From IMG/VR virus record IMGVR_UViG_3300042484_002006: a stretch of 64,000 nucleotides of DNA; one strand, written 5' to 3'. Source of the DNA: a virus. A program made the position numbers and the translations under genes. Shown one piece after another: positions 41,671 to 64,000 of the stretch (its first letter is position 1; every line of letters starts with the position of its first letter). The notes beneath the pieces were generated by a model. The model had not been told where the DNA came from, searched no databases, and saw nothing but the letters and a program-made list of their open reading frames with translations.

Positions 41671-41694
41671 AAGAGTCTATCCTTAAATAAAGAA

Positions 41695-41724
41695 GGGAGT
41701 GACGCCATTGCTGACGCCACTCCC
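41695..41724 (-). terminator. intrinsic terminator after the 849-aa gene
   Basis: GGGAGTG-GCGTCA-GCAA-TGGCGT-CACTCCC then TTCTTTATTT. Confidence 0.8.
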
Positions 41725-41739
41725 ATCTGTGTGAGTAAA

Positions 41740-48657: not shown

Positions 48658-48670
48658 TAGAGTGCCTCCT

Positions 48671-49235: not shown

Positions 49236-49486
49236 TTGATGGTGTAGTTACCCTTCTTTTGTATGTACCCATAGAGGACTATAGGTATAAAAAAAGTGGA
49301 TACCACATAGTTTTACATGCTTAATAGTCATGTATTGTATGGGTACCCACGTGAAAGGGGTCGTTGAACACTGTTTGTCCAACAAAAATCCTACTATTAT
49401 AATCTGTGATAGGATGGATATGTACAAGGATAGTGGTAGAACCACCACCTAGTTCTACCACTTATCCCTGCTGAAAGTATTATCTC

Positions 49487-49702
49487 CTATATAGGGAGTT
49501 GTATATCATACAGACGTTTAAAGTCTCTTCTCATTGGATGGAGTGCGGATTCCGTCCCATGAGTATTGTATATGGGTCCGTCTACATCGGAGGGAGGGAT
49601 GATGGTATACGAACCGGACTTCTTATGGTTGACAGTGAATCCAAGTCTTTCGATCTCTCTTAAGACTTGCTTCATTGCTTTTGATTGATGCTGTTTGGGC
49701 AT
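49487..49702 (-). CDS. HicA-like (dsRBD-fold) protein
   Basis: LREIERLGFTV..KKSGSY; the usual HicA His is not evident. Confidence 0.45.
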   Translation of the reverse strand: MPKQHQSKAMKQVLREIERLGFTVNHKKSGSYTIIPPSDVDGPIYNTHGTESALHPMRRDFKRLYDIQLPI

Positions 49703-49963
49703 CTCGTCTATACTCCTTGTTTATGTAGGGGTACTTACTTTCGTAGGTATATTATAGCATAAGCAGTAGTGTTATGCTGGGATTTGGAAATATTTTTTGG
49801 GGAAAATAGTTTCTAGTTGGACTAGGATATTTGGCCTGTGGACAGGCCGGCGAAACATCAAGACTAAAAATCTATACTAAATTTTTTTTATGTTGTATTA
49901 TTCCCTATATATAGAGAATAGTATAACTGACGTTATGATGTTCTGATAATATCCTGTAGGGTA

Positions 49964-49990
49964 CCCCCCCGCTTCGCGGGGCCCCCCCCC
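49964..49990 (-). other. G/C-run-flanked GNA-triloop hairpin (copy 2)
   Basis: - strand G9-CCCCGC-GAA-GCGGGG-GGG-TAC. Confidence 0.6.
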
Positions 49991-50062
49991 TTATAGAGGT
50001 CTATTTGTAAAAAAAGAAAGTAACTCAGTAGGAGGAATCAAAACCTACTGAGTTACCGATCT

Positions 50063-50290
50063 TTATACGTTGTTAGGGTGTTTATCCCAATCAACTGGTA
50101 CGCCGTTCTCATTTAACTCGAGAGTTTGAAGATACTTGGCATATGCGGAATATCCGCGGACTGATGAGCCTTCATCTGGACTGTGTGTGAAGCAGTAGGG
50201 TTCATCGTCGTAATTGACGAAGTAACCACAACTAGGGTTTTCACACCTGTGTCGCCAGATTCCGTTTTCTGGATCATTTTCTAATGACAT
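50063..50290 (-). CDS. Cys-containing hypothetical protein
   Basis: CENPSC...CFTH; SD AAGGA. Confidence 0.55.
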   Translation of the reverse strand: MSLENDPENGIWRHRCENPSCGYFVNYDDEPYCFTHSPDEGSSVRGYSAYAKYLQTLELNENGVPVDWDKHPNNV

Positions 50291-50292
50291 GT

Positions 50293-50454
50293 TTATTCCT
50301 TTTCTTTTTGAAACATTGGATCGTTTAAGTGTTTTTCGCAGGCATACCAATGTCCGCCCGAACCAAGGTTAAAACCTTGAACGTTTGGGACAATTAGTTT
50401 GCCACCTGATTCTTGCCAGCATAGGCTGCAAGGATATCTTTCTTGATCTGACAT
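50293..50454 (-). CDS. small Zn-ribbon-like protein
   Basis: CSLC...CEKH; SD AAGGAG. Confidence 0.5.
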   Translation of the reverse strand: MSDQERYPCSLCWQESGGKLIVPNVQGFNLGSGGHWYACEKHLNDPMFQKEKE

Positions 50455-50596
50455 ATTGCTCCTTTTCTGTTTTGTTTGTACTAAAATTTTTTTTATTAGA
50501 AAGGTGTTTGCGCCACGAGTCTTACGTGGATATGCGCATTCAACTCGAAAATTGTTGAATACAGCTGACAAATTTGCCGATCAGCTTCCGCAAACA

Positions 50597-50730
50597 TGGC
50601 GGAGCTTGAAGGAATCGAACCTTCCTGAAATGGCGTTGCACGAAGACATGATGTCCATAATATACAATGTGATCTAAAGATTAGACTATTGCATTATGCT
50701 TTAAACCAGATACTTGTAACCATTAGCCCC
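50597..50730 (-). ncRNA. tRNA-like structured RNA (about 134 nt) ending in CCA
   Basis: T-arm GAAGG-TTCGATT-CCTTC, 3' AAGCTCCGCCA; candidate 5' end GGGGCTAATGG. Confidence 0.5.
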
Positions 50731-51104
50731 AAGGGGGTGGTATATTGGTAGCCATGTGGCTCGCATATACCAGACGAGACATAGTAAGCAGGTCGCTACC
50801 AATCCTGACGCTTCACTAAAGACAAGCGTAGCCTATCTGATCTAGCATTTCTCGGATACTTTTTCAATCAGACTTTACTAGAGTATCTTAACTTGTACTT
50901 TCCAATGGGATACCTTCTCTCCAAGTTAGATAGGGTAAACGTCTACTTTTTTGTAGAGTATAGACAAACTCCAACTGTTCATTTTACCAGGGCTTACAGT
51001 CATCCCTGTAACCATATTGTATATCTGGGACAATTCCTTTAGGTTTTGGCTCCGCTATACAATTAGGGGTGTCCGTTTTTGAATGGAACGGACAAACCAT
51101 TGAG

Positions 51105-52151
51105 TCATTCGAACCCAGTTTTGCCATCAAGAATTGAAGTTTCAGTTCCAACTGTTGATGTATTTGCATTTGCTGAATTACTCCACAAGTCAACATCAAC
51201 AGGATTGTTGTTGACGAGCATAGTGAAGCGACCGCAAGGTGCACTTACTGGATCAAACTGATCTTTTGCTTCAAGTTTTCCATTAGGAAGTTGAACGATA
51301 CGCTGTTGCGCACCACCCCAGTTTGAGGTGTATTGCGTAGCCATATCTTCAAATTTCTTGATTTGTGTTTGAGCAGCTTTGATCTGTGTTTGCGACCAAG
51401 TGCTTGTGTTCTTTTCGATTTCACTCTTAAGAACACTTGCTTCTTTGGTGAACTTGACGACGCGAAGGAAGTTTTCGAACAAAGCATCTCCGAGATCGAT
51501 AAAGCCTTGGTTGGCATAATCTTTACGCACAGATGCGCTACGATCAACTGTTCCGACTTCGAATGATGTTACGTCAACACCTTCCTTATGAGCATAAGCA
51601 ACACGAATGTTTCCTACTTTCATGTTTGCTTTAACCATGCGCTCTAAGTCGTCGGTTGCACCTGCTTCTTTGAATGCTTGGACAGCAGAGTTAAATGCTT
51701 CAAAGTTTGCACCAAATTGCTGGAAGAACAAAGGCATTCCGTCAGTGAAGTTCATGCCCATGTTACGAAGGTCACGAACAAACTGCTCACGAGAATGATC
51801 TTGCTTACCAGAAGATTCTTTCACAATGGTGTGAAGAAGATCGATGATGTTCATGCGGTTGCCATCAATCAAGAGATCAATGTTCATTTTTACAGGTTTG
51901 AACATACCAGTAGCGAGCCAATACGAACGCTTGTTGCGAGTATTTTGCTCAATAAGCGAAAGACGAGTAAGTTTAGCAGATTCAAGTGTGACATACGCAG
52001 GAATTTTCTTTCCAGCAATAGTGACATTATAGGCTACTTCTTTGCCCGCAATGAGCTTGGTAGTTTTACCTTTGTTTTCAAATAATTCTGGACTTTCAGC
52101 AACAATACTGAAATCGTTGGCTTCTAAGCCAAACATGTTAAGGATACTCAT
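51105..52151 (-). CDS. hypothetical protein
   Basis: 348-aa ORF. Confidence 0.85.
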   Translation of the reverse strand: MSILNMFGLEANDFSIVAESPELFENKGKTTKLIAGKEVAYNVTIAGKKIPAYVTLESAKLTRLSLIEQNTRNKRSYWLATGMFKPVKMNIDLLIDGNRMNIIDLLHTIVKESSGKQDHSREQFVRDLRNMGMNFTDGMPLFFQQFGANFEAFNSAVQAFKEAGATDDLERMVKANMKVGNIRVAYAHKEGVDVTSFEVGTVDRSASVRKDYANQGFIDLGDALFENFLRVVKFTKEASVLKSEIEKNTSTWSQTQIKAAQTQIKKFEDMATQYTSNWGGAQQRIVQLPNGKLEAKDQFDPVSAPCGRFTMLVNNNPVDVDLWSNSANANTSTVGTETSILDGKTGFE

Positions 52152-52321
52152 AAGTGTAACTTTCTGTTAGGTGTTTAATAGGGATGTATTTACTTTTGTG
52201 TGCTGGGGCTATGACATTTGTCAAGTCCCTTCTTTTTTATGTTCACAATAGTTTAGAATACTATTGTAAATTTTTTTGTTGAGAGCATAGCGACGTTGCT
52301 ATACTCCCAACAAAGGTTTTA

Positions 52322-52525
52322 TTACTTGATGTCAATGACTTCAGAGTCTGAACTCCGTTGTGCACCTTGATTGAAGCCGGCGATCAAGTCATCTTTTGCA
52401 TTTACAAGAGCCTTCTTGGTCTTTGAGGATGCAGCTTTGCTGACTTTGACAGTCTTTGAAGGCGCATTCTTACTGACGGCTACGGTTTTGCCGAAGAGTT
52501 TTCCGGCTGTTTGTACGATTTTCAT
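52322..52525 (-). CDS. small basic protein
   Basis: ATGA-coupled. Confidence 0.55.
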   Translation of the reverse strand: MKIVQTAGKLFGKTVAVSKNAPSKTVKVSKAASSKTKKALVNAKDDLIAGFNQGAQRSSDSEVIDIK

Positions 52526-52704
52526 GACACTTTCTCTTTCTGTTTGTTGTTGTAGTGGTTGACTAGATTTTGGAATTCAATTGATGGTGTATATTTGATT
52601 TCCATTTTTTGTTTTTGCATTTCTGTGCTGAATGCGTAGATGAATCCAGCAAGGAATGATCCGGCATATACTGCCAGCATTACTTTTAGTGTAATTTTAT
52701 TCAT
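52522..52704 (-). CDS. small membrane protein
   Basis: N-terminal TM segment; SD AAGGAG. Confidence 0.55.
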   Translation of the reverse strand: MNKITLKVMLAVYAGSFLAGFIYAFSTEMQKQKMEIKYTPSIEFQNLVNHYNNKQKEKVS

Positions 52705-53022
52705 TTTTCTCCTTTTGTTAACCCTTCTTTTTGGAAGAGATCTATTTTTTTAAAAAAAAGTTATTACCAAAGATCTATAAACTCCCTCAGGGAGCATCCT
52801 TACCATACGAAAGGGGGGTATATGGCAAGGACGCTCAACCTGGGAGGGAAGATTGGTTGCTGGGAAAGGATCATATGATCCAATCCCTTGATTCCTTCTG
52901 AGAGGAATAGCCCGCAAGAAGGCTAACCAAGAATTTACGCTCTTGGAAACGAGGATTTAATGTATCCGTATATTGCAGCACCGATAATGCCGGATACGAT
53001 TGCACCGATAAAGAATAGCATG

Positions 53023-53352
53023 TTAGGCTACTCTTGGAATTGATGTTTGCTTAGGACTTTCAGCTTGTTGCTTTAGCATTTCATCAAGATGAGCTTTGCG
53101 ACATGCTGAGATTGCATCCTTACGTTCGTAGAACGATGTAGGATTCAATGGTCCAAAGCCTTTTGTTGTGAAGAAATACTTCTTAACGCCGTGATAACGA
53201 CAAACTGAAATATGTCCAATGACTTCGCCTTCAAAACGGACTTTCTGTCCATAGTTAAGACGAGCAACTGCTTTACTGACAATGAAATTAGTTAGATACA
53301 GCATAGCTATACCTAAGGCCATTCCGATAAGTAGGATACCTACTGTGTGCAT
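53023..53352 (-). CDS. membrane-anchored hypothetical protein
   Basis: TM segment; SD AAGGAGG. Confidence 0.65.
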   Translation of the reverse strand: MHTVGILLIGMALGIAMLYLTNFIVSKAVARLNYGQKVRFEGEVIGHISVCRYHGVKKYFFTTKGFGPLNPTSFYERKDAISACRKAHLDEMLKQQAESPKQTSIPRVA

Positions 53353-53572
53353 TTGTGCCTCCTTAGGGCGTTTGTTGGTGGGATTACTCCCCTTCTTTTT
53401 TGTTTGAACAATAGATTAATCTACTATTCTATTTTAAAAATTTAGAATAGATACCTAGGATCTAGGTTCTATTACTAAAAAAGATATGACTTCACCATAT
53501 TGGCGAAGCCCGCACTGGCTCAGCGATCCCGAGCGAAGCGAGGGGTCCTGAGACAGGGCGTTAAAAAATAAG

Positions 53573-53608
53573 GCGAGCCCACCCCAGATTTCTCTGAGGT
53601 GAGCCCGC
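53573..53608 (-). terminator. intrinsic terminator
   Basis: 15-bp stem with G-U pairs on the - strand, then CTTATTTTT. Confidence 0.8.
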
Positions 53609-53633
53609 AAACGGACAGGACTTGGGACGAGAG

Positions 53634-54050
53634 TCAGAACGACTCAACATCCATTTCAACGCTGGCAGGACGTGACTTAGCAAGCCAAGTTCCCATAAGG
53701 GACTCGACTTCATTGTCAACGGTACCGCGGGCAACAACAGTCAACTGTTCCAACCACTCAGCAAGGAAATCCTTGGTGATGGTAACAGTGAACTTGGGCT
53801 TACCAGCGTTATCACCTTTAGCGATGATACCACTGACCAACATTGCCTTCGGGAGATCCCAAAGGATGTTATTGGTAGCCTTGCCATCGGCACCTTTCGC
53901 CAACATGACCAACAAGCCCTCACGGACACCATTGGGAACATTGACAAAGACTGGGCAATCCCAATCTGCGCCATCGCGACGGGCAACTCGAACTGCCAAG
54001 TCACCCGCATTGACGAATACAGGTATAAACCTGCTTGTGGACTTACTCAT
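53634..54050 (-). CDS. hypothetical protein
   Basis: 138-aa ORF between an SD-like sequence and the terminator. Confidence 0.7.
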   Translation of the reverse strand: MSKSTSRFIPVFVNAGDLAVRVARRDGADWDCPVFVNVPNGVREGLLVMLAKGADGKATNNILWDLPKAMLVSGIIAKGDNAGKPKFTVTITKDFLAEWLEQLTVVARGTVDNEVESLMGTWLAKSRPASVEMDVESF

Positions 54051-54389
54051 AACAGACCCCTTTCAAAGGTCTCAAGGGAAGGCACGGTGCCAACCCTTCT
54101 TTTTCTCAGTGGACGACTGAGCGCGTTTGGGACTACTCCCTTCTTTTCACAGAAGGAAACAACCCCTTCTTTTCACCGATATGCTCCCAGAGGGATTTAG
54201 AATGTCAGTGAAGAGACTTGACTAGGAACCTATCCTTGGTCGCGGAGGGATTTAGAATAAGTACCTATCATAAAAAAAGAATTTGAGTGTAATGGTCTAT
54301 GATAAAAAAAGAACTAATATTCTATTATAAAAAAGGAAGTCCCCGAGGATTTCTCCCCGGGAACAACCTTTCGATAACTTACTAAACTA

Positions 54390-54953
54390 CTAACTAAGCA
54401 GCTCAGTAGGGTTGATTACAACCATGGGCTTTTGCTTGTTGCGAGCATAACCCACACAGTTTCCCGTGCCACCAGACGTGCCATCCCAAATAGCAACCAC
54501 ACTGTCAGCGTGATCTACCATCCAGATGTTCCTGTCTTGCATGACCTTTGCTGTGGTGTATTCACCATTGTAGACGTATACAACACCGTCTTCAATAGTT
54601 TCACCGTCGCTAGCAAGAGTACGAGCTAGATCTGCATCTGCAAATCCGCACATCTTCTTGTAGGTCAACTTGCTTTCAGCAGGCCATTTAATGTCCTGAT
54701 TTCGGCAAGGTGCTGCAATCATGAACCGAAGACCCATCTTATGAGCCTCCCGTGCTGCATCGGTATCAACGCCAAGAGCGCCTCCACTGATGACAACCAC
54801 TTCATGTGTCTCACCATACTTGGCCACTGCTCGTGCAAGAGCGTTGTTAATGGCTTCAGTAACAGCAACACGCATTGGTGTCTTTGCATTGTATCCCCCA
54901 ATTTTATTGGGACGATGACCCGTAAAGGCTACTTTATACAATGGTTTGTTCAT
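54390..54953 (-). CDS. SLOG-family protein (YspA/DUF1273-like)
   Basis: VAFTGHRP, SGGALGVD, RNIWMVD, WDGTSGGT. Confidence 0.88.
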   Translation of the reverse strand: MNKPLYKVAFTGHRPNKIGGYNAKTPMRVAVTEAINNALARAVAKYGETHEVVVISGGALGVDTDAAREAHKMGLRFMIAAPCRNQDIKWPAESKLTYKKMCGFADADLARTLASDGETIEDGVVYVYNGEYTTAKVMQDRNIWMVDHADSVVAIWDGTSGGTGNCVGYARNKQKPMVVINPTELLS

Positions 54954-55054
54954 AGCACTTTCCTTTCTTTTTTGGACTGACCCGAATGGTCTATCCTCAA
55001 AGAAAGAAGTCCCTCCTACACTGGTTATGTAGTGGGACTTCAGTCTTCTTCAGC

Positions 55055-55285
55055 TCACTCCTGGTCGAAGAGTGTGGGCTGGCTGTCTCGAAGGTTCTTG
55101 AGATTGCGTTTGTCAGACGCTTTCTTCTTTCCCTGCTCATTGCGCTTCAACCACGTCTCGTAACAGACGGGGCAGAGCGTCATCCTGTAAGGGTAGGCGA
55201 CGAATCGACCAGTACCCTTGGGGATGAAACGCTCACACCCATCTGCCTTGAGTGCGCAGACCGTGTTGTGATGGTTATAGGCCAT
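55055..55285 (-). CDS. small Cys-containing protein
   Basis: ATGA-coupled; CPVC. Confidence 0.55.
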   Translation of the reverse strand: MAYNHHNTVCALKADGCERFIPKGTGRFVAYPYRMTLCPVCYETWLKRNEQGKKKASDKRNLKNLRDSQPTLFDQE

Positions 55286-55656
55286 CAGGAACGATGCTGC
55301 TCGCAGGTGTTGCGGAATGCAATGGCATCGGCCTTGGTCATCTCGACCTTGTGGCTGTTCTTGCCCCAACCGCAGGTAACCATGACTTTCTTGTCAAGGT
55401 CATTGATTACTGCAGTAGGACGAGCTGTCCACTTGGTGTTGACGACGGTCACGCCAAAGCATGCGCGCACTTCTTGAACAGTGCTGTGCTTGCCACTGCA
55501 ATTACCGCAGGCGATGCCCTTGGTCTGTGCTGGCGTTGGTGCCGGTGCCATCTCGACGACAGGCTTCACCACGGGCTTTGAACCCTTGATGAAGACTGCC
55601 TTGCCATTGATGACCGTGTACTGACGGCCATCCTTTGCTGTCTTGATTGCTTCCAT
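55285..55656 (-). CDS. Zn-finger-like protein
   Basis: CGNC..KH...VRAC; SD AAGGAGG. Confidence 0.65.
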   Translation of the reverse strand: MEAIKTAKDGRQYTVINGKAVFIKGSKPVVKPVVEMAPAPTPAQTKGIACGNCSGKHSTVQEVRACFGVTVVNTKWTARPTAVINDLDKKVMVTCGWGKNSHKVEMTKADAIAFRNTCEQHRS

Positions 55657-56029
55657 TTTTGTGCCTCCTTGGCTGATTCCATTTGTCAAGGTTGGAATTC
55701 CTGTCAGGCATTAGCTCCTGCTGCGTCACCCATATTTTCTAATAACTACTATTAAGCGCTCAGGTTCTGCGCTTGAGGCCAATGAACTATCCTCAAAAAA
55801 AGGAGGTTGCCAGGAATTTCTTCCCAACAACCTCCTCATTTAGCGGTCTTTTTAATCCTACAGGTACTGCTTTCAATGTCGCAGACGAGAGCTACCTCGT
55901 TCATAGCAAATTAATTTTATAAGGGTAGCCCCCAGGAAACAGTATTTCTACTGAATCCCAGGGGCATCCTTCTTCCAGTTAGTTATGTAAACCTAACTAG
56001 GATGTTCTCCTATCTCAAGGAGTACTGCG

Positions 56030-58429
56030 TCAGCTCCCTATGTCCTTAATAATCGGACTTGCTGATGCGGGCAACCATGAATAGGTTCCGTCTTGAACAC
56101 GCTTCAAAGCACGTACATAGAACATGTACGGTTGCATTTCGCTCTTAGCGTTGAACGAGAACAGCCACTGATCATGGTTTGCTCCTGGCATTTGAGCCTT
56201 CGCGAGGATAGCTTGGTGAGCTAAGCACAAGATCTTACGATCAGTACGTTCTTCACCATGCTCTTCATCGCTCTTGGTCATCAGCTCTACGAAGTAATCA
56301 CACCAGGTGAGACTACTGTTTCGAGCTGCTTGATGAACCTCTTTAATCTTAACCAGTTTCTTCCAAGCGTTTGCGCGCTCTTCTGGAGTCCAGTTGATGT
56401 TCGCCAGCACTTCGGGCATAACGACTTGACTATTCAGCCAATCCGTCATTTCCTTAATGTACTGACGCACAAGGTTCTCACGCTCCTTATGGAGTGTGAC
56501 CCAAGGCGATGCTTCCTCGGATGAGGTTTCCCATAACTCTGCCAACGGTGCTGGCATCCGGGTCATGAACCAGAAGCGGTCCATTTCCCAGTTGAGCTTT
56601 TCGCCCATCGTGGTGAATGTGTTGTCGATCCATTGCTTGATCAACTGCACATCCTCCAGAGAAGCTTGCCCCTGCTGAAGAACATCAACGATGTCTTCGT
56701 TAGTTGCAACCAACTCCTCAATGGGCTTCCCGAACTGAGCGTACCAGATCATCTTTGGGATGACCGTTCCGCCCATTCCTGGTGGAAAAGCTTGTGATGC
56801 AAGCCGAACAGCCGACTCATCCTCCAGCGAGAACACGTCACCACGCTTACGTGGATTAGTGATCGCCGGAAGTGAACCGATGTTCAGATGCTTCTTCAGC
56901 TTTGTGAACTGCGGAACCTTACTAGATAGTTCCTGCAGATCCACCAGCGGGGGCTCAGCACCATAGTCGTGGAATACCGGTCCGGTCTCCTTAATCGGAA
57001 TCATCGCATACTCACCGAAATCATTCGGATTGCGCATGACAATTCCCATCAACTTGACCTTGCCCTTACTATCTAACACACGGCGCACATGCACCTTAAC
57101 TGTGTCATCTAGGTCCGGGCCTCCCCAGTTCTCAAAGTTATCCTTCAAGAACTGGCCAGGCACCACGAAGCTGTGGGTAGCCTCATGAAAGAAGCCTTCG
57201 TTACCAGCGGGCATCTTAAACCCACCGATTTCGAGGACTTCCTTGGTATAGATGTGAGCGGCATAAGCCCACGACACTGGAAACCAGTGACGAGACTTGT
57301 CCATCCACACCTCACCCTGACGATTGTCGCCCAACAGCTGCTTTCGCAAACCATTAACCGACAGGAACATCAAGGTTTGACTGGCATTCAGGGGTACACC
57401 CAACTTGCTAAGTTGAGCAACCGCATGCTGAATCTTGCCAACTAGGCCACGATCCTTTGCATACTTTACCTCCGACTCTTCATGTAGGATAGACCCACTG
57501 CTTTCAGCGAGTTTCTCCATCCATTCAGAGCGTTTGCCAGCCACCAAGTCCTCCTTGAATTGCTTCAAAGAGGATTCCAAGGTAGCCAGGAGTGAGTCGT
57601 GGTCATACAACCCTTTCACATCCCAGTAAATGGAATGTGTCAGATCGTCAGACTTCACAGGAATCGTCCCGTAAGACGGCTCCAGTGTGACCCATTGCCA
57701 CCCGCTTGTTCGGATCTCAGCCTTGATATTCGGAGCAAACGTCCGAACTTCGTAGCCTTTCATCTGCTTACGAGGAGTGATCACGGCATTGCCTTTGATC
57801 TCTCCAAGCGCGCAGAGCATCCGGAACTGCACAACGACAAGACTGCCATTGCGAATGTTCCAGATCATCCGAGCCCGCCAAGCACGCGTAGCCGAAGTAT
57901 TCGACTTCACGCACTTGATTGCGAGCCCACGGGTGATGAACGTCGCACCGTCCACATATTCGTCAGGCATGCCCAACGCTTTGTGATCGATAACGTCGAC
58001 CTCAAGAGCCTTGTCCTCGGGGATGTAGAGCCACATGCACGACATGCGCACGAGCTCTACAAGCCTCTTCGACATCTTCTTGGAATTCCCGATCAGAAGA
58101 CCGATTTCCTTGAATGCCGAGAGCCAGCCATTGTTGCCCTTAATGCGCAACATGTACTGATCCGAGGAGTTACTCCAACGAATTACTTCGCTAGAGAATA
58201 GCTCCTTATTGGTCACCGCAGGTGCGCTTTCCACCGATCCAACCTTACGGCTGAACAGCTTACGCACCTCGACGCGGTACTTCCCACCCCAGAAGTGCTC
58301 CAGGAACGCTGGGACGTATTGTCCTCCCTGAAACTCTTCTTTGATGTTGGTACCCGGGACGTGAGCCGCACCAGTCAGCAGCCGAAGCCACCTTCCAGCG
58401 AGGACCACAATGCCATGGAAATACGGCAT
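56030..58429 (-). CDS. putative single-chain two-barrel RNA polymerase (YonO/QDE-1-like), paralog B
   Basis: KMSKRL, DGATFITRGLA, VQFRMLCALGEIKGNAVI, GGPDLDDTVKVHV, RNPNDFGEY; start set at ATG 58429 after a GGGAG SD. Confidence 0.7.
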   Translation of the reverse strand: MPYFHGIVVLAGRWLRLLTGAAHVPGTNIKEEFQGGQYVPAFLEHFWGGKYRVEVRKLFSRKVGSVESAPAVTNKELFSSEVIRWSNSSDQYMLRIKGNNGWLSAFKEIGLLIGNSKKMSKRLVELVRMSCMWLYIPEDKALEVDVIDHKALGMPDEYVDGATFITRGLAIKCVKSNTSATRAWRARMIWNIRNGSLVVVQFRMLCALGEIKGNAVITPRKQMKGYEVRTFAPNIKAEIRTSGWQWVTLEPSYGTIPVKSDDLTHSIYWDVKGLYDHDSLLATLESSLKQFKEDLVAGKRSEWMEKLAESSGSILHEESEVKYAKDRGLVGKIQHAVAQLSKLGVPLNASQTLMFLSVNGLRKQLLGDNRQGEVWMDKSRHWFPVSWAYAAHIYTKEVLEIGGFKMPAGNEGFFHEATHSFVVPGQFLKDNFENWGGPDLDDTVKVHVRRVLDSKGKVKLMGIVMRNPNDFGEYAMIPIKETGPVFHDYGAEPPLVDLQELSSKVPQFTKLKKHLNIGSLPAITNPRKRGDVFSLEDESAVRLASQAFPPGMGGTVIPKMIWYAQFGKPIEELVATNEDIVDVLQQGQASLEDVQLIKQWIDNTFTTMGEKLNWEMDRFWFMTRMPAPLAELWETSSEEASPWVTLHKERENLVRQYIKEMTDWLNSQVVMPEVLANINWTPEERANAWKKLVKIKEVHQAARNSSLTWCDYFVELMTKSDEEHGEERTDRKILCLAHQAILAKAQMPGANHDQWLFSFNAKSEMQPYMFYVRALKRVQDGTYSWLPASASPIIKDIGS

Positions 58430-58722
58430 CTCTCCCTCCCTTTCTGTGTGCTTTTCTACAGAGCACATACTGTTGGCCCTGGCGTGGAACCTTACGTGTG
58501 ACTAAAGGCCAATGGCCTATCGTCAAAAAAAGGAATCTAAGGTCAGTAAGCAATACTCTTAGGTGAAGGGTCTATTATTACTAAATTAAGCAATTGAGTA
58601 TCAACAATGATATTCATTACATTTCTACCTCCTGTTTAAGGGCCAACGATCTATTGGCAAAAAAAGGAAGTCCCCAGGGATTTCTCCCTAGGGACAACCT
58701 TTTACTTATTTATTGACTATTA

Positions 58723-58941
58723 CTATTGTGCGTCGTTGATATTTTGTTCGCACACTGGACAAATCATCCAGTTTCCAACAAACGAATAGCAGATTTCACT
58801 GCCTTGGGCGACTAAAGCCCTAGTGCATTCAACACATGCAATTTTATCCATCTGATAGTCTAAGACATTGAAATGCCCTAAACTGTGTGGGACTTTGGGG
58901 TACAAAACTGTATCCCAATTTGTTGAATATTTCTTCTTCAT
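58723..58941 (-). CDS. small Zn-ribbon protein
   Basis: CVEC...CPVC; SD GGAGG. Confidence 0.7.
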   Translation of the reverse strand: MKKKYSTNWDTVLYPKVPHSLGHFNVLDYQMDKIACVECTRALVAQGSEICYSFVGNWMICPVCEQNINDAQ

Positions 58942-59059
58942 AGTTTGCTGACCTCCATCAGCTAGTGATCTAGACCACTTTGGTCTATCTCAAAAAAAGG
59001 AAGTTCCCGGGAAATATCTCCCGAGAACCTCCTTCTTTCACTTACTTAATTTTTCTTAC

Positions 59060-59335
59060 TTACTTACTTGGTTTGCCGTATTCCCTTCTCTTTCTTTCAG
59101 CTTCCTCTTCTTGTTGGCGCATGTACTGCTCTTGAAGTTCAAAGCGTGCCAAGTCATACTCCGCTTGCGCTTCAGCCTCCGCCATCAATATAGAAACGGT
59201 GTGCTTCCATTCTTCCAGTTCAGCTTCCAGTTCTTGACACTTCAAACATTTAGGGACTACCTGCCTAGTAAGCTCCGAATCTTCAAGATCTGGAACCCAC
59301 ATAGGATCTTCATCCCATGGTCCATTAACTGACAT
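59060..59335 (-). CDS. coiled-coil hypothetical protein
   Basis: CLKC; directly after a repeat and SD. Confidence 0.7.
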   Translation of the reverse strand: MSVNGPWDEDPMWVPDLEDSELTRQVVPKCLKCQELEAELEEWKHTVSILMAEAEAQAEYDLARFELQEQYMRQQEEEAERKRREYGKPSK

Positions 59336-59451
59336 GATTTCCTTTCTTGGACTGGCCCCAGTGGCCTATCCTCAAAAAAAGGGTAGGGTCCTTACCCCAG
59401 AGATCCTAAGATCCCCAGGGTAAGGAGCGGTTTCATGGACAACGAGGTTTG

Positions 59452-59616
59452 TCAGTCCTCGCTTTTTGCTGCGATCCAACCGCCAATAACGCAATAACCC
59501 GTTATGACAGTCAGCATAAACACAATGAACCAGCCTGGGCTAGCCATTGTAATTACACCGAACATCGCCAAGAACAAGGCGATGTGGATAGCAACCATGG
59601 TTTTGTTAAGAGCCAT
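59452..59616 (-). CDS. 54-aa two-TM membrane protein (not in the ORF track)
   Basis: MALNKTMVAI...; paralog of 59733..59897. Confidence 0.75.
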   Translation of the reverse strand: MALNKTMVAIHIALFLAMFGVITMASPGWFIVFMLTVITGYCVIGGWIAAKSED

Positions 59617-59732
59617 GGTTTCCTTTCCTGGACTGGCCTGGATGGCCTATCCTCAAAAAAAAGGGTAGGGTCCTTACCCCAGGGATCCGAAGATCCCCAG
59701 GGTAAGGAACGGTTTCATGGACAGAGAGAGAA

Positions 59733-59897
59733 CTAGTCCCTCTCTATGCTGCTCAGCACGGTGCCGACTATAGCGTAAGCTATAATCACACTGGGGAGAC
59801 CAACAATGATCCACCCGAAGGTGGCCTTTGCTAGTAGGCCCCACATTGCCGCTGCTACGACAATGGTGATGGCAACCATGGTTTTGTAAAAAGCCAT
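59733..59897 (-). CDS. 54-aa two-TM membrane protein
   Basis: MAFYKTMVAI...; true start after the repeat SD. Confidence 0.75.
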   Translation of the reverse strand: MAFYKTMVAITIVVAAAMWGLLAKATFGWIIVGLPSVIIAYAIVGTVLSSIERD

Positions 59898-59982
59898 GGC
59901 TTCCTTTCTGGACTGGCCCGAGTGGCCTATCCTCAAAAAAAGGAAGTTCCCAGGGATTTCTCCCCAGGAACAACCTTCTTTG

Positions 59983-60360
59983 TTAGGCTTCCCACCTTTC
60001 TCTCATGCGCTGCACCATTTCAGGTGAAACGCCGTGGATGTTACCGTACGACCCGGTACACACGATTACCTCGTGATCTGCACCAAGCTCTTGTGCTAAG
60101 TTAATATACTTAGCAAACTCCCACGTCCGGGTGAACGTGTTAGCTACGGCTACCACTGGGGTACCCATAACAAGAGCTTCTCGCACTGCCTCAAAGCACT
60201 TTTCGTGCACTTCAGCAAGGCGAGAGGGGTCAAATTCGTACTTACCCGAAGCGTCTACCATATAGGTATCTGCTTCAAAGCACGCATTGGGTGCCATCTC
60301 GGCAGCCAACGTACTTTTACCCGAACCGGGTAAGCCACGAATGATTAGGAGCTTTGTCAT
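59983..60360 (-). CDS. P-loop kinase (AAA_33/PNK/N4BP2-like)
   Basis: IIRGLPGSGKST, EAD, NTF, HGV. Confidence 0.85.
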   Translation of the reverse strand: MTKLLIIRGLPGSGKSTLAAEMAPNACFEADTYMVDASGKYEFDPSRLAEVHEKCFEAVREALVMGTPVVAVANTFTRTWEFAKYINLAQELGADHEVIVCTGSYGNIHGVSPEMVQRMRERWEA

Positions 60361-60539
60361 TGCTCCCTCTCCTTTCTTGGACTGGCCTGGATGGCCTATC
60401 CTCAAAAAAAAGGTAGGGTCTCTACCCTAGGGATCCGAAGATCCCCAGGGTAGGGACGAGTTGTCTCCATTCTGTTCCCAGGGTAGGAGTGTTCACCCCG
60501 GCTACTCTCTTTCAAGTAGCGGCTTGTGGGACGAGGTTC

Positions 60540-60716
60540 TCAGAGAGAATCGATACACTGCCCGTGAACGAGCGGCATAGATTCATCCCTGGTCCGGTGA
60601 ACCGTTGTTCCAAGTTCCCCTGTAGGGAGCTTGTACCAGTGATCCACCACCTCTTCTACAGTTATGTCCTGTCCGCAAAGCGAACAAACACCAACCGAGT
60701 CCCAGGTGGGAGCCAT
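60540..60716 (-). CDS. small Zn-binding-like protein
   Basis: CSLC...HGQC; SD GAAAGGAGGT. Confidence 0.65.
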   Translation of the reverse strand: MAPTWDSVGVCSLCGQDITVEEVVDHWYKLPTGELGTTVHRTRDESMPLVHGQCIDSL

Positions 60717-60853
60717 TATTTCACCTCCTTTCGTTGGTGAGTTGTGGACTGACCCCAATGGTCTATCCTCAAAAAAAAGGAGTTCCCTCCTACGCTGGAT
60801 GCGTAAGAGAGAACTCCAATTCTTTTGTTAAGCTGGACTCATCAGCTTAGTTG

Positions 60854-61300
60854 TCAGATTACAGTTTGAGCGCGTACAACTCGCCCAAATTGATCCTCCA
60901 ACCTGTCACCTAACAGATTGATTTCACTCTCTGAAATCTGATTACTGATGGTGATTGTGGGCAAGCTGTTTACCTGCCATTCAACTACGTAAAGGGCAGA
61001 ATCAATCTGCTCAATGTCATAGCCCATTTGGCATCCGATGTGGAATTGGTTGCCGTGATTTTCCACTCGTTCAGCTTCATTAACGATTGTCCAATCCCAG
61101 TACGAGATATTGGACATTGCATTCCACCACTGATTGGTGGGGTTGGGCTGGTGGTGGCAATCACGACCACCCATGCGCACCGTGGTTGAGACGAGACCGT
61201 CAACAACGATCACCTCTGATGCGAGCATGGTGATGCCATTGCTCATGATGATATTTCCCAAAATCCTGAGCATCAGGATTCTGATTTGCATTTCGTTCAT
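60854..61300 (-). CDS. hypothetical protein
   Basis: SD AGGAGG; start uncertain. Confidence 0.55.
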   Translation of the reverse strand: MNEMQIRILMLRILGNIIMSNGITMLASEVIVVDGLVSTTVRMGGRDCHHQPNPTNQWWNAMSNISYWDWTIVNEAERVENHGNQFHIGCQMGYDIEQIDSALYVVEWQVNSLPTITISNQISESEINLLGDRLEDQFGRVVRAQTVI

Positions 61301-61579
61301 AATTCCTCCTAGGAATCATAATACGCAGTTAAGGCTCGCGTAGTCTCCTAGTCTTTTAAATTGCAGGTGTTCTATAGTCTGCAACGCTAACAATGTGACA
61401 AACATCGCCTGGTTTTATACTAAACAGATACCAGATTTAAGGACAATGGTCTATCCTCAAAAAAGGAAGTTTCCTCCAGGATTCGAAAATCCCAGAGGAA
61501 ACAACCTCTTTAGCGCTTCTGTTCCCAAGTTGCGCCAACTCGGCCACTCTCTTACAAGTGGCGGTGTCCAATCGCCTGA

Positions 61580-61819
61580 TTATTCCCAGGAGATCGAGGA
61601 TCCAGACCTCAGGGACTCAATAGCAATTTCTGCTATCAATCCCCGATCATCTGCATTCACAATCTTATGAAGATTCTGAACGAGATGTTCTGGGTCCATC
61701 GATCCAGTCCAATCGGATTCCTCTGCGCTAGGAAGACCTAGTTGGCAGAGGACATAGTCAAAATGACTATATGTCCAAGAGGCTCGATCCTCGTTTCCGA
61801 GGAAGATGGAGACACCCAT
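61580..61819 (-). CDS. hypothetical protein
   Basis: SD GAAAGGAGGT. Confidence 0.7.
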   Translation of the reverse strand: MGVSIFLGNEDRASWTYSHFDYVLCQLGLPSAEESDWTGSMDPEHLVQNLHKIVNADDRGLIAEIAIESLRSGSSISWE

Positions 61820-61990
61820 GTTTTCACCTCCTTTCTGGGGTGATATAGGGAGGCCGAATGCCTATCCCAAAAAAAGGAAGTTTCCCCAGGATCCGAAGAT
61901 CCCAGGGAAACAACCTCTTTAGTGATTTTTCTGTTCCCAAGAGTCACTACTTCTTGGCCACCCGTGTCGTGGCAGCTTGGTTGATTGTGA

Positions 61991-62272
61991 TCAGTCCTTT
62001 GTCAAAAGAATCAACTGACCAGCGTAAACCTTCGTTCCGTAGATACCGGTAACAAAGTATCTTGCGGAAGTCAGATCGCCTTCACAGTGATCTTCTAACA
62101 AAGTCCAGATTGAATCCCCCTGCTCTACGAACGCCGCAGACACATCACATGTGTAAGCGGGCTCTGTTGCTTCACGGTGGATTCCGCGAGCAACAAAGAA
62201 CAGAAGAACAACAATCAACGCAACGAGAATACGCCTTGCGACGTAGACTCGCCTTGCTGGCTTTGCCTTCAT
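61991..62272 (-). CDS. membrane-anchored LysM-domain protein (YneA/ChiZ-like architecture)
   Basis: basic N-terminus, TM segment, VEQGDSIW...VYAGQLILL. Confidence 0.7.
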   Translation of the reverse strand: MKAKPARRVYVARRILVALIVVLLFFVARGIHREATEPAYTCDVSAAFVEQGDSIWTLLEDHCEGDLTSARYFVTGIYGTKVYAGQLILLTKD

Positions 62273-62423
62273 TGTTTCACCTCCTTTCCGAGGTATTATG
62301 GACGGGCTTGTTGCCTATCCTCAAAAAAAGAAGTTCCCCGGAATCCGAAGATCCCGAGGAACAACTTTCTTCTATAGTGTGTCTTTGCTAGTGCGCAAGG
62401 TAAGACACTACCCTCCCACTACC

Positions 62424-62714
62424 TCAAATAAAGGTAGTGTTCTTTATGATCTCATTGGGATCAGTTCCCAAGAGATGCATAAAGACAGGGTTGAGAAGAC
62501 GAATCTCCTCGACCCTGTCACCCAAGAGGACAACTGCGTACAAAGCGAATATATCGCCTGCACAAGCAATGTGCTCAAAGGTGACTCCATCGGCCTGGTA
62601 GCCAATGGAGCGACCATCGTGACCCTCACGGATCACGACGATCTTTCCATCAAGGGGTATTAATCCCACGATGGAATTGTTGGTGGTTGCCCACCATTGG
62701 ATATCGAGTTTCAT
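62424..62714 (-). CDS. hypothetical protein
   Basis: SD AAAGGAGG. Confidence 0.6.
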   Translation of the reverse strand: MKLDIQWWATTNNSIVGLIPLDGKIVVIREGHDGRSIGYQADGVTFEHIACAGDIFALYAVVLLGDRVEEIRLLNPVFMHLLGTDPNEIIKNTTFI

Positions 62715-62893
62715 CTCGACCTCCTTTGTCACTTTGCCGGTGTTGGCAGGGCTGTGACTCATGCCCTTGGACTGGCGCGGTTGGCCTATCCTCAAAAAAA
62801 GAAGTTCCCAGGGACCTAAATCCCCGGGAACAACTTTTTCTATAATGCGTCTTTGCTAGTATGCAAGGTAAAACGCTGCCCTTTGTCCAGTCA

Positions 62894-63133
62894 CTACCCT
62901 AAGGTAATGACTGGACGGATCGCAATGCCACGAAGGCGCTGCGATGAGAACTGGGTGAACACGATGATCGTTTGACCATCCTGCTCATCCAATTCCGGGA
63001 TGGAAATTGAGCCGTAAAATTCGACCCAATCTCCCTCGGGGTTCTCAACATGACCATAAGTCATGCTGGACCCGATTTCGACAACAAAGGTATTACCCTT
63101 TATTGTCCTGAATTTGTGGATTCCCATTTTCAT
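62894..63133 (-). CDS. hypothetical protein
   Basis: directly after a repeat and SD. Confidence 0.65.
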   Translation of the reverse strand: MKMGIHKFRTIKGNTFVVEIGSSMTYGHVENPEGDWVEFYGSISIPELDEQDGQTIIVFTQFSSQRLRGIAIRPVITLG

Positions 63134-63226
63134 GGTTACCCCCTTCTGGACTGATCCCATTGATCTATCCTCAAAAAAAAAGTTTCCCCAGGATCCGAAG
63201 ACCCCAGGGAAACAACTTTTTCTAAA

Positions 63227-63325
63227 TTACTTCTTCTTGTTATAGAAGAATAACGGCGCAATCGCCATTATGCAGCACACCACGAATATGGTGTTGCCAA
63301 TCATAAAGAACATGTTATCTGACAT
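63227..63325 (-). CDS. 32-aa single-TM peptide
   Basis: after a repeat and SD; hydrophobic core with a KKK tail. Confidence 0.55.
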   Translation of the reverse strand: MSDNMFFMIGNTIFVVCCIMAIAPLFFYNKKK

Positions 63326-63458
63326 AACAATTCCCCTTTCAAGAGAATGAGTTAGGAGCCTTTCTCCTATCCTCAAAAAAAGAAGTTTCCCCCAAGGCAA
63401 ATGCCCCAGGGGAAACAACTTCTTTCAGGCAGGATGGGTCATCATCCTACCTAATTAA

Positions 63459-63683
63459 CTAGAGGTCGTCATCCTCGTCTGACTTAAATGGGTTAAACCC
63501 ACTAAAGTCAAACTTGTTGTTGAGCTTAACACCCAACACAACGATGCCAACAAGGATCAGAAGACCCCAGTTGACAAAGCCCGATACTACACCGAGCAAC
63601 CCGAACACTACCTTACTTGTTGGTGTAAATACCAACAAGAGAACTAGTGCGAAGTACTTATTGTTCTTAATGAATTGCAACAT
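63459..63683 (-). CDS. small membrane protein
   Basis: hydrophobic hairpin; SD GGAGG. Confidence 0.65.
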   Translation of the reverse strand: MLQFIKNNKYFALVLLLVFTPTSKVVFGLLGVVSGFVNWGLLILVGIVVLGVKLNNKFDFSGFNPFKSDEDDDL

Positions 63684-64000
63684 GATTTCCTCCAAGAAAC
63701 ATGCCTTTGTTCAACTTAACGTATTGAACGTGATTATTACGAATGGTAAAACCATCTTCCATGTCTACTCTTTAACGCGAGTGAATCCGTTGGCCCATGG
63801 CGAACCTTACTAAAGGACAATGACCTATCCTCAAAAAAGGAAGTTCCCCAGAATCATAAGATCCTGAGGAACCACCTTCTCCGTACCTACCCTACTAGGT
63901 ACTGCTTATATCAGATACGGATATAGTTCTTCGTATCTTCTGACAACTTAACAGTGCGTCCACCGTTAGCTGTCAGATGCTTGAATGATGCATGTGCACC

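Follow-up and report, generated by a model that had tools for sequence, protein, structure and literature searches.

Promoter-early stem-loops (PeSLs) of T4-type phages are composite terminator/promoter motifs (Arbiol et al. 2010, PMC2839356; Comeau et al. 2014, PMC4122927). The repeat described here lies in a 64-kb window (the whole stretch of DNA analyzed) of the virus record IMGVR_UViG_3300042484_002006. The phage is uncultured, about 200 kb in size, and comes from a lake. Like the PeSL, its repeat is a conserved intergenic composite of about 100 bp, with a terminator stem-loop, a promoter (a candidate one here), and a Shine-Dalgarno sequence (SD). Regions of small ORFans are rich in both, each cassette has its own start and stop signals (again candidates here), and between close relatives whole cassettes have been inserted or deleted, the crossovers falling within the motif. 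A first-pass annotation of this DNA had held that the fused terminator matches no PeSL, which was mistaken, since PeSLs are defined by that very combination. The differences lie elsewhere. The PeSL promoter is a strong sigma-70-like early promoter used by the host polymerase, whereas the units in the window show no sigma-70 pattern. The PeSL stem-loop can take five positions relative to the -35/-10, but the order here is fixed: a GC hairpin, a run of six to nine T, the core, a 4-bp mini-hairpin, the SD, and the start codon. Also, the phage is not T4-like and encodes predicted two-barrel polymerases.

In the Thermus phage P23-45, cappable-seq and ChIP-seq have mapped two promoter motifs, one AT-rich and one GC-rich; there is also a conserved terminator motif, and the nvRNAP gene is among the pre-early genes (Chaban et al. 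2024, PMC10770324). More than one single-chain two-barrel RNA polymerase is encoded in each phage, and each has a block of small genes, putatively first-wave in our phage, with its own conserved promoter motif, a second-polymerase gene, and sequence-conserved terminators, followed by another promoter motif serving the next wave (polymerases and promoters being predictions in the window). In the window, terminator and candidate promoter are fused in one repeat at which cassettes are shuffled, a feature that is not known to be described for P23-45. The P23-45 signals are mapped experimentally, whereas those of the window are known in silico alone.

In coliphage N4, the early genes, which include the one for the next polymerase, lie behind promoters of a special class believed to be served by an injected enzyme. 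This injected polymerase, vRNAP, is T7-like, and its promoter hairpin (5–7-bp stem, 3-nt loop) is on the template strand upstream of the start site. The window is comparable in that an injected polymerase is supposed to read the first class and a small hairpin with a covarying stem sits beside conserved bases. However, the mini-hairpin of the window, with its 4-bp stem and loop of 5 nt, follows the conserved core on the downstream side and is free of strand bias. The start-associated sequences (SAS) of cluster K mycobacteriophages are 13-bp elements of translation initiation, situated only a few bases away from the start codon. They too are repeated upstream of many genes on one strand, but in the window the core is 29–150 nt upstream of the start codon and fused to a terminator, and each gene has a separate canonical SD.

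A repeat in front of nearly every gene

The window carries 17 units between 54979 and 63876, all on the minus strand, followed by three decayed cores at 54265–54322 (Table 1). They divide about 10 kb of small genes without known function into one-gene units. All 17 cores that the first-pass annotation listed are present on this strand, at places 10–17 nt upstream of the positions it gave, which still fall within the units. Its view that nearly every gene is its own unit holds as well: the block has 14 units for 13 small ORFs and a polymerase gene. The cargo consists of ORFans, except for one AAA_33 kinase-like gene and one SLOG/YpsA gene. The core reads GAGGATAG in 13 of the 17 units, and the T-run is 6–9 nt long, as first described, except in unit 54991 (TTTCTTT). 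The decayed copies comprise one hairpin and three tandem T-runs with AT(A/C/G)ATAG cores.

Allowing up to two mismatches, TTTTTGAGGATAG has 18 matches in the window, all on the minus strand and 12 of them exact, compared to 3.68 +/- 1.95 in shuffled sequence, and none of 100 shuffles reaches 18. Terminator-like sites are also in excess (40 observed, 9.4 +/- 2.9 expected).

Table 1. Array units and neighboring features of the window (hairpin energies in kcal/mol)
Feature	Position	Strand	G of core's TAG	Hairpin	T-run and core	Downstream of core
Unit 1 (first of array)	63813..63876	-	63825	63876-63839, -24.3, loop UUAU	T6, GAGGATAG	141-nt leader; ATG 63683; 74-aa membrane-like ORF, always first cassette in relatives
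Unit 2	63355..63416	-	63367	63416-63385, -24.5	T7, GAGGATAG	mini-hairpin GGAG/CUCC; ATG 63325
Unit 3	63153..63213	-	63165	63213-63182, cUUCGg loop	T9, GAGGATAG	mini-hairpin GAUC/GAUC; AGTCCA; ATG 63133
Unit 4	62774..62831	-	62786	62831-62804	T7, GAGGATAG	71-nt leader; ATG 62714
Unit 5	62303..62362	-	62315	62362-62333, UUCG loop	T7, GAGGATAG	ATG 62272
Unit 6	61850..61915	-	61862	61915-61876, UUCG loop	T6, TGGGATAG	ATG 61819
Unit 7	61439..61506	-	61451	61506-61465, UUCG loop	T6, GAGGATAG	150-nt leader; ATG 61300; 148-aa ORF
Unit 8	60751..60817	-	60763	60817-60779, 17 bp, -29.2	T8, GAGGATAG	mini-hairpin GACC/GGUC; AGTCCA; ATG 60716
Unit 9	60384..60457	-	60396	60457-60418, UUCG loop, -30.7	T8, GAGGATAG	mini-hairpin GGCC/GGCC; AGTCCA; ATG 60360; 125-aa AAA_33 kinase-like ORF
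Unit 10	59915..59971	-	59927	59971-59946, GAAA loop	T7, GAGGATAG	mini-hairpin GGCC/GGCC; AGTCCA; ATG 59897; 54-aa membrane-like ORF
Unit 11	59635..59708	-	59647	59708-59671, UUCG loop, -30.8	T8, GAGGATAG	mini-hairpin GGCC/GGCC; AGTCCA; ATG 59616; paralogous 54-aa ORF
Unit 12	59354..59426	-	59366	59426-59389	T7, GAGGATAG	mini-hairpin GGCC/GGCC; AGTCCA; ATG 59335
Unit 13	58973..59032	-	58985	59032-58999	T6, TGAGATAG (one base shorter)	mini-hairpin GACC/GGUC; ATG 58941
Unit 14	58639..58699	-	58651	58699-58666, GAAA loop	T7, GCCAATAG	24-codon mini-ORF 58616-58542
Unit 15	58505..58529	-	58517	no stable hairpin (-5.3)	T7, GACGATAG	87-nt leader; ATG 58429 of polymerase gene
799-aa gene	56030..58429	-				inside array; predicted single-chain two-barrel RNA polymerase
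Unit 16	55775..55837	-	55787	55837-55800, GAAA loop	T7, GAGGATAG	130-nt leader; ATG 55656
Unit 17	54979..55045	-	54991	55045-55002	TTTCTTT, GAGGATAG	mini-hairpin GACC/GGUC; AGTCCA; ATG 54953; SLOG/YpsA-family ORF
Array end	54253..54368	-	54322, 54297, 54265	54368-54335, GAAA loop; last two cores without hairpin	three tandem T-run cores about 30 nt apart: TATAATAG, TATCATAG, TATGATAG	
Second motif, three tandem copies	54094..54173	-			AAAAGAAGGG	directly after array; candidate second promoter class, not part of repeat
Second motif, five further copies	53390, 52722, 52227, 49251, 44387	-			AAAAGAAGGG	
Outlying unit-like site	41677..41725	-		present	T-rich run, AAGGATAG	ATG 41670; site just after 849-aa polymerase paralogue

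Two hairpins of different character

The first hairpin has an energy of -21 to -32 kcal/mol in 16 of the 17 units, the exception being the one before the polymerase gene. UUCG loops, which had been described as frequent, close 6 of the 17 hairpins and GAAA loops 3, with GAAA also in the hairpin of the decayed core at 54322 (10 together). The sense strand folds more stably than the antisense strand at 18 of 20 unit sites in the window, decayed copies included, and 17 of these have a hairpin of -14.8 kcal/mol or lower. Of 141 distinct family units, 133 fold more stably in the sense strand, with 265 G-U pairs on the sense strand versus 46 on the antisense strand. This asymmetry, the distribution of G-U pairs, and the common UUCG and GNRA loops mean that the hairpin acts at the level of RNA. 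Together with the T-run, it fits an intrinsic terminator.

The short inverted repeat noticed in the first-pass annotation is real. It has a 4-bp stem, beginning at the G of TAG, and a 5-nt loop. Over 35 units, pairing holds in 83.6% of cells, and in 20 cells both sides have changed, a covariation equaled by none of 500 shuffles. Because related loci are pooled, the statistics given here and below make the units look more independent than they are. A strand asymmetry of pairing was looked for in this mini-hairpin and none was seen, so it could act in DNA rather than RNA.

A predicted polymerase gene within the array and a second motif

For the 799-aa protein encoded within the array, the predicted fold is that of a single-chain two-barrel RNA polymerase. 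Its AF2 model (pLDDT 84.7) gives Foldseek matches to QDE-1 (5.5e-8), RDR2, gp64 of P23-45 (6.5e-4), and gp62 of P74-26. The sequence D-L-D-D at residues 439–442 is invariant. The protein matches gp64/gp62 by fold; its catalytic loop, reading DLDD, sets it apart from P23-45. The 849-aa ORF is a paralogue. In all relatives, the 799-aa gene is the last conserved gene of the array.

Just after the array begins a second motif, AAAAGAAGGG, identical in all clades, with 8 exact sites in the window compared to 0.23 expected. The two motifs are divided by the polymerase gene. In the window and within 10 kb on either side of the loci in relatives, 132 class I units lie upstream of the gene and 37 downstream, versus 2 and 81 for AAAGAAGGG sites. 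By analogy with P23-45 or N4, this partition may be read as a relay of two promoter classes. Neither the embedded gene nor the second motif class had been noticed in the first-pass annotation.

Conservation and exchange of cassettes

Units on the same strand lie upstream of the polymerase gene in 25 of 27 loci, and the architecture is kept down to 36% polymerase identity. Hairpin, T-run, and core have fixed spacing in all clades, while the core sequence is clade-specific and follows the polymerase clades: xGGATAG marks a derived clade, TATGGGTAG occurs widely, and the 36% clade has TATG(A/G)CTAG. Every array is preceded by a conserved non-coding element. Near-identical copies of the unit are many, and several units share hairpin sequence families.

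Close relatives differ by whole cassettes, with junctions within the repeats. For example, the polymerase genes of the window and of its near relatives L001 and L002 are 96% identical, and yet there are 13 cassette genes in the window, about 6 in L001, and about 13 in L002, in unchanged relative order. Unit spans, which make up about 29% of the sequence, hold 27 of 39 homology breakpoints. The window and L003 have one cassette in common at 96% DNA identity, with a protein identity of only 59% between their polymerases, and the unit 8 cassette has 96–98% DNA identity to cassettes in L002 and L003. The first-pass interpretation is therefore partly supported: one unit per gene and shuffling in nature stand, but the contrast with PeSLs does not, nor does the suggestion of an array extending beyond the window. 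In L001 and L002, the array opens with the homologue of unit 63825, and farther upstream come one gene, an AT-rich gap of about 480 nt, and then genes on the opposite strand.

What the units may do

The explanation we favor, at a probability of roughly 0.6, is that each unit is a composite stop/start cassette in a first-wave regulon that hands over to the second motif, with cassettes exchanged at the repeats. The long GC hairpin and U6-9 would form an intrinsic-type terminator closing the transcript of the upstream gene. The same T-run, with the 8–9-nt core ending in TAG plus a purine, would be a compact non-sigma-70 promoter, and its probable reader is a single-chain two-barrel RNA polymerase of the phage's own. 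An enzyme that arrives with the virion is the most plausible, since a further polymerase of this kind is encoded in the array. Transcription would probably start at or adjoining the G of TAG, and the mini-hairpin from that G would be the 5' end of a short leader with a strong SD.

The T-run and core also occur without a hairpin, before the polymerase gene (58517) and as tandem pairs (54297/54265 and 53469/53429), which speaks for a function of the core independent of the hairpin. In L010, L012, and L013, the first unit lacks a hairpin and stands at the end of a non-coding gap of about 450 nt that follows opposite-strand genes, so there is no upstream transcript to terminate or process. A point against the favored reading is that in the clade of the window the gene immediately upstream of unit 1 has no class I core, and another start signal must therefore exist there.

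The first alternative, an unlikely one, is that the unit is a terminator and RNA-level element only. The promoter would lie in the upstream AT-rich gap, with partial read-through, and the core would be an endoribonuclease site or leader element yielding monocistronic mRNAs with a 3' hairpin and a 5' mini-hairpin. The first hairpin is clearly an RNA structure, the conserved element before every array could hold the real promoter, and the mini-hairpin starts exactly at the last base of the core, as for a protected processed 5' end. However, hairpins this stable followed by U7-9 would leave little read-through over 14 units, the tandem hairpin-less cores with no gene between them have no obvious use in processing, and a core that changes by clade in a constant architecture is more easily reconciled with a reader encoded by the phage than with a host RNase.

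Somewhat less probable again is that the host RNA polymerase reads the core via an unrecognized host or phage sigma factor, with the phage polymerases acting only later. The terminators are of classical bacterial type, and in many large phages early transcription relies on the host polymerase, T4 with its PeSLs being an example. Against this, -35/-10 pairs are not enriched (6 sites versus 10.7 expected, by a sigma-70 consensus that may not be that of the host), the core as read from the sequence has no TAnnnT-type -10 in any register, and it differs between related phages. About 26 ORFs of the window were checked by Pfam or PHROGs, and none is a sigma-factor gene, a sample too small to count for much.

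We give slightly less weight still to the hairpin, T-run, and core being a polymerase-specific terminator, with promoters elsewhere in the leaders, such as around AGTCCA. In its favor are the spacing fixed in all clades and the 26-nt conserved motif at the left-end termination sites in the pre-early region of P23-45, which the block would resemble. But cores lacking a hairpin stand at array heads and ahead of the polymerase gene, AGTCCA is present in no more than about 10 of the 17 units, and the leaders vary widely in length. Scarcely credible is a last alternative, that of selfish REP- or MITE-like miniature repeats spread between genes without a regulatory role, as the numerous near-identical copies and shared hairpin families might suggest. 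The units keep strictly to a single orientation, stand one per gene in a constant arrangement with the SD and start codon, lack terminal inverted repeats or target duplications, and are conserved down to 36% polymerase identity, with a strand asymmetry that points to selection on RNA.

If the units are composite stop/start cassettes, the array would be a first-wave regulon whose last member is the 799-aa polymerase gene; gene order and the logic of the relay suggest that it is expressed early, and the first-pass annotation proposed a role in host takeover as well. The clade-invariant AAAAGAAGGG would take over directly after the array, much as gp96 gives way to gp64 in P23-45 and vRNAP to RNAPII in N4. 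The 25–30 identical bases of the hairpin 3' arm, T-run, and core may also serve as recombination patches, by which whole cassettes are gained, lost, and exchanged between phages. What sets these cassettes apart from PeSLs is the type of promoter and the group of phages, not the fusion of terminator and promoter.

A repeated unit in front of small genes

The minus strand of the window carries an array of 17 copies of one composite unit, most of them placed before a single small ORF. The array of hairpins and cores reported in the first-pass annotation is real and has good support; TTTTTGAGGATAG matches 18 times with up to two mismatches, always on the minus strand, compared to 3.68 +/- 1.95 matches in shuffles of the window. 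In 16 of the 17 units, a first hairpin with a stem of 11-17 pairs and a loop of 4-5 nt is followed by a T-run (T6-9). The energy of this hairpin is -21 to -32 kcal/mol, and its loop is UUCG in 6/17 units and GAAA in 3/17, with a decayed hairpin at 54322 providing a fourth GAAA. The 8-nt core that follows ends in TAG and reads GAGGATAG in 13 units and TGGGATAG, TGAGATAG, GCCAATAG, and GACGATAG in the other four. The G of the TAG, whose position serves as the coordinate of a unit, is also the first base of a mini-hairpin with a 4-bp stem and a 5-nt loop. A strong SD resembling GAAAGGAGG and then an ATG close each unit, often with AGTCCA between the mini-hairpin and the SD, and the start codon lies 29-46 nt from the TAG in 12 units and 71-150 nt from it in the other 5. 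In the window as a whole, 40 terminator-like sites are seen compared to 9.4 +/- 2.9 expected. The G+C content of the array block (54000-64000) is 46-51%, compared to 31-42% elsewhere in the window; the higher value extends to the coding parts and is not confined to the hairpins.

The array had been expected to run past the end of the window, which related IMG/VR loci show not to be the case. Homology to one of them, L002, reaches the window's final base. In both L001 and L002 the unit matching 63825 comes first; it is preceded by one gene, and further upstream an AT-rich stretch of ~480 nt, which contains a conserved element, separates that gene from genes on the opposite strand, so the array starts at about 63876. 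The conserved non-coding element, TAGGGAAAAATTTAT..GTGAGTAATAGTG..GTGTG...TTTAACG.GCCCACCCCC, is found in a ~450-nt AT-rich gap heading the array in three clades, and it might include the first promoter of all or a signal for the genome end.

Some parts are found in only a few units. A longer leader, CATTGKCCTTTAGT...AAGGTTC...GGGCCAAC, is common to units 1 and 15 only and may be a regulatory RNA element shared by the genes behind these units, the first cassette gene and that of the polymerase. Some hairpins are preceded by linkers such as TAAGTAAGTAAG that contain stops in each of the three frames, and AAGTAAGTA is found 12 times in locus L003. Three-frame stops lie within 45 nt upstream of the hairpin in 5/17 units of the window compared to 6% of random windows, an excess too weak and confounded to carry a conclusion.

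Positions of the array and associated features (window coordinates unless a related locus is named)
Feature	Position	Strand	Remarks
Array of composite units	54979-63876	minus	17 copies
Array end	54322, 54297, 54265	minus	tandem T-run/AT(A/C/G)ATAG cores; three cores behind a single hairpin
799-aa polymerase gene	56030-58429		inside array
849-aa ORF	41740-44289		paralogue of the 799-aa protein
Unit-like site	41677-41725	minus	hairpin, T-rich run, AAGGATAG, ATG 7 nt on, without a separate SD; directly after the 849-aa paralogue
AAAAGAAGGG sites	44387-54173	minus	8 exact sites
First cassette gene	63459-63683		membrane-like product
Cassette similar to one in L003	60395-60787		96% DNA identity
Adjacent cassettes for 54-aa proteins	59452-59897	minus	paralogous hydrophobic products
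24-codon mini-ORF	58542-58616	minus	after unit 14
Leader of units 1 and 15	63760-63824, 58430-58516	minus	
Stop-rich linkers	59040-59075, 58700-58725, 54375-54400	minus	
Conserved head-of-array element	L001:7320-7410, L002:3380-3450, L010:2160-2240, L012:4710-4780		non-coding

Two hairpins with different signatures

In nearly all units of the window, the first hairpin is 5-10 kcal/mol more stable on the sense strand than on the antisense strand. The same is true across the family, where the sense strand is more stable in 133/141 distinct units (Wilcoxon 6.6e-23), and G-U pairs over these 141 units number 265 on the sense strand and 46 on the antisense strand. This means that the first hairpin is selected on the RNA strand. 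Because this selection is accompanied by a U-tract and by the UUCG/GNRA loops common across family units, the first hairpin with its U-tract bears, at the level of sequence, the signature of an intrinsic (Rho-independent) terminator.

The stems of the mini-hairpin covary, taking the forms GGCC/GGCC, GACC/GGUC, GAUC/GAUC, GGAG/CUCC, and GGGG/CCCC. Over 35 units, 83.6% of cells are paired and 20 cells are altered on both sides; none of 500 shuffles matched this covariation, and slid controls were only 14-62% paired. A strand asymmetry of the mini-hairpin, sought to tell action as RNA from action as DNA, gave no signal.

The polymerase gene and its neighbors

The large ORF inside the array encodes 799 aa, counted from an SD-preceded ATG. 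It has 124 metagenomic homologues, among which D-L-D-D is invariant at residues 439-442. The AlphaFold model of the protein (pLDDT 84.7) matches single-chain two-barrel RNA polymerases, namely QDE-1 (E 5.5e-8), plant RDR2, gp64 of phage P23-45 (8f72, 6.5e-4), and gp62 of P74-26, and by its predicted fold the 799-aa protein is an enzyme of this kind. The 849-aa ORF encodes a distant paralogue with the common segment GGxDxDD...RxPNxxGEY.

Between unit 1 and the large ORF lie 13 small ORFs, of which only one, for an AAA_33 kinase-like protein, belongs to a Pfam or PHROG family; a SLOG/YpsA protein is encoded after unit 17. The first cassette gene is conserved as the first in the window, in L001-L003, and, by eye, in L010. 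Two neighboring 54-aa genes are paralogous and therefore point to a tandem cassette duplication. A 24-codon mini-ORF, the start region of which is conserved in L001, follows unit 14, with no terminator hairpin before the hairpin-less unit of the polymerase gene; it may encode a leader peptide or act as an expression coupler for that gene. Searches of INPHARED phage records gave no DNA or protein match to the window, and nothing in Rfam came close to any gathering score. A literature search with the motif strings returned chance primer matches only, and no paper on this phage family was found.

A core that drifts with the polymerase

Each of 27 IMG/VR loci (L001-L027) encodes a relative of the 799-aa protein, with identities of 36-96%. 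In 25 of these, units on the same strand lie upstream of the polymerase gene, the last of them 60-100 nt before the gene start. The order of parts is constant across loci: hairpin, T-rich run, short core with TAG and a purine at its end, small hairpin, SD. The core itself varies. The T7-GAGGATAG form is seen in the window, L001-L004, and L032/33, and only six IMG/VR contigs have this variant; TTTTCTCTT-TATGGGTAG is present in most loci, with a TATGGGTAG array in L005-L018, and the most distant clade has T6-ATG(A/G)CTAG. On a quick tree of the polymerases, the loci with an xGGATAG core form one derived clade, and L006 has intermediate forms. Because the core drifts by polymerase clade while the architecture stays constant, a reader encoded by the phage would explain the drift better than a host factor. 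Over half of the 27 contigs (L002-L007, L009, L016, L019-L022, L025-L027) stop within 10 kb of the array or the polymerase gene, which suggests that assembly tends to fail in this stretch of repeats and variable sequence.

The core as a candidate promoter

Sigma-70-like sites are not enriched in the window (6 compared to 10.7 expected), and just one overlaps a unit. Bacteroidota-type (TTTG / TAnnTTTG) and actinobacterial TAnnnT promoters were rejected by eye since their downstream boxes are absent, and so was an ECF GGAAC-type promoter, which also lacks downstream boxes and whose GGAAC is confined to some hairpin families.

Of the matches to T5+N3-5ATAG in the window, 27 lie on the minus strand and 2 on the plus strand, compared to 2.3 in shuffles. 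Some of the T-run and core pairs stand without a hairpin, as at 58517 before the polymerase gene and in the tandem pairs 54297/54265 and 53469/53429; at 50001 the hairpin is present, but the spacer is AT-rich. The core is a module of its own, apart from the hairpin, and resembles a promoter. Such a module could also be a site of RNA processing or a part of a pure terminator. In L010, L012, and L013, however, the first array unit is without a hairpin and ends a ~450-nt non-coding gap after opposite-strand genes. A start signal is favored over both alternatives because these first units have no upstream transcript to stop or cut. The unit is most likely, on the evidence of its sequence, a cassette of terminator, promoter, and leader that serves a phage polymerase and also acts as a recombination scaffold.

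A more elaborate arrangement is a coupled stop-restart signal, in which one phage polymerase would finish its transcript at the hairpin with its U-tract and, still on the DNA, begin the next one at the overlapping core. The proposal resembles the way non-segmented negative-strand RNA viruses arrange their gene junctions, with U7, intergenic bases, and a conserved gene start. The idea is improbable; if true, expression of the one-gene cassettes would be graded by position, and the units would offer the first promoter and terminator grammar for the unstudied DxDD two-barrel polymerase family, with class I and class II read by different enzymes.

A second motif and a possible relay

Besides the array units (class I), there is a second motif (class II), AAAAGAAGGG, for which 0.23 exact sites are expected in the window and eight are seen, three of them in tandem immediately behind the array. 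The motif does not vary between clades and begins right after the polymerase gene or array (L001-L027). It often has TTCTAAA before it and a hairpin beginning in its GGG after it. Over 21 non-redundant loci, 81 copies of the shorter word AAAGAAGGG lie downstream of the polymerase gene and 2 upstream, whereas class I units number 132 upstream and 37 downstream (Fisher 4e-34, a value inflated by the relatedness of the loci). AAAAGAAGGG is a candidate for a second class of promoter. Read most simply, the two classes would form a relay, in which class I would drive the cassette genes and the gene of the 799-aa polymerase, and the second class would take over immediately afterwards. We infer that class I is read by a phage polymerase.

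Phage P23-45 offers a likeness, in that the phage studied here also encodes single-chain two-barrel polymerases, as judged from the model of the 799-aa protein. P23-45 uses such a relay: its virion enzyme, gp96, transcribes pre-early genes, the gp64 gene among them, and the phage has two promoter motifs as well as a conserved motif at left-end terminators (PMC10770324).

Exchange of cassettes

The first-pass annotation regarded the genes of the array as shufflable and proposed a comparison of related genomes, with gene gain or loss and breakpoints in the repeats as the outcome to look for. This is what the comparison bears out. The window, L001, and L002, whose polymerases are 96% identical, have 13, about 6, and about 13 cassette genes, respectively, in the stretch from unit 1 to the polymerase gene. 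The three differ by whole cassettes, and the relative order of the cassette genes is kept. Of 39 internal homology breakpoints (HSP ends), 27 fall within -65 to +50 nt of a TAG, spans that cover about 29% of the sequence, and position -76, barely outside the hairpin, accounts for several others. One cassette is nearly the same in L003, the polymerase of which is only 59% identical at the protein level, and the homology begins in the hairpin 3' arm and T-run of one unit and stops at the TAG of the following one.

Comparison with known systems

The fused architecture had been thought to match neither of two known analogues, a claim that is wrong in kind, since a PeSL of a T4-type phage is by definition a composite of terminator and promoter that lies beside ORFans and allows modules to be shuffled (PMC2839356, PMC4122927). 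Like PeSLs, the units combine a conserved intergenic stem-loop with a candidate promoter, are dense among ORFans (17 units in 9 kb), and hold the junctions between close relatives more often than their share of the sequence would predict. Unlike PeSLs, they have no sigma-70-like promoter (-35, -10, upstream AT-rich region), keep a fixed order of parts, belong to another phage group, and are linked to phage-encoded two-barrel polymerases.

The start-associated sequences of mycobacteriophages, the other analogue, lie a few bases from the start codon and replace or overlap the SD, whereas the core here is 29-150 nt from the start codon and each gene has a separate SD. In promoters of the N4 type, which a T7-like vRNAP uses, a hairpin with a 5-7-bp stem and a loop of 3 nt forms on the template strand and lies upstream of the start site. 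The mini-hairpin differs in its 4-bp stem, its 5-nt loop, its place downstream of the core, and its lack of strand bias, and the polymerases are two-barrel.

Significance

Promoter maps for single-chain two-barrel phage RNA polymerases exist in very few systems, and P23-45 is the clear case in the literature consulted. The array and its relatives supply about 170 aligned natural examples of one candidate promoter, from an uncultured, widespread, freshwater group of phages. The core variants of the different clades (TATGGGTAG, xGGATAG, TATGACTAG) and the invariant AAAAGAAGGG are concrete templates for in vitro transcription with the 799-aa and 849-aa enzymes. The PeSL idea of regulatory cassettes that double as recombination linkers for the shuffling of ORFans is extended beyond T4-type phages and host-type promoters, on evidence that includes a recent transfer of a cassette between phages with polymerases only 59% identical.
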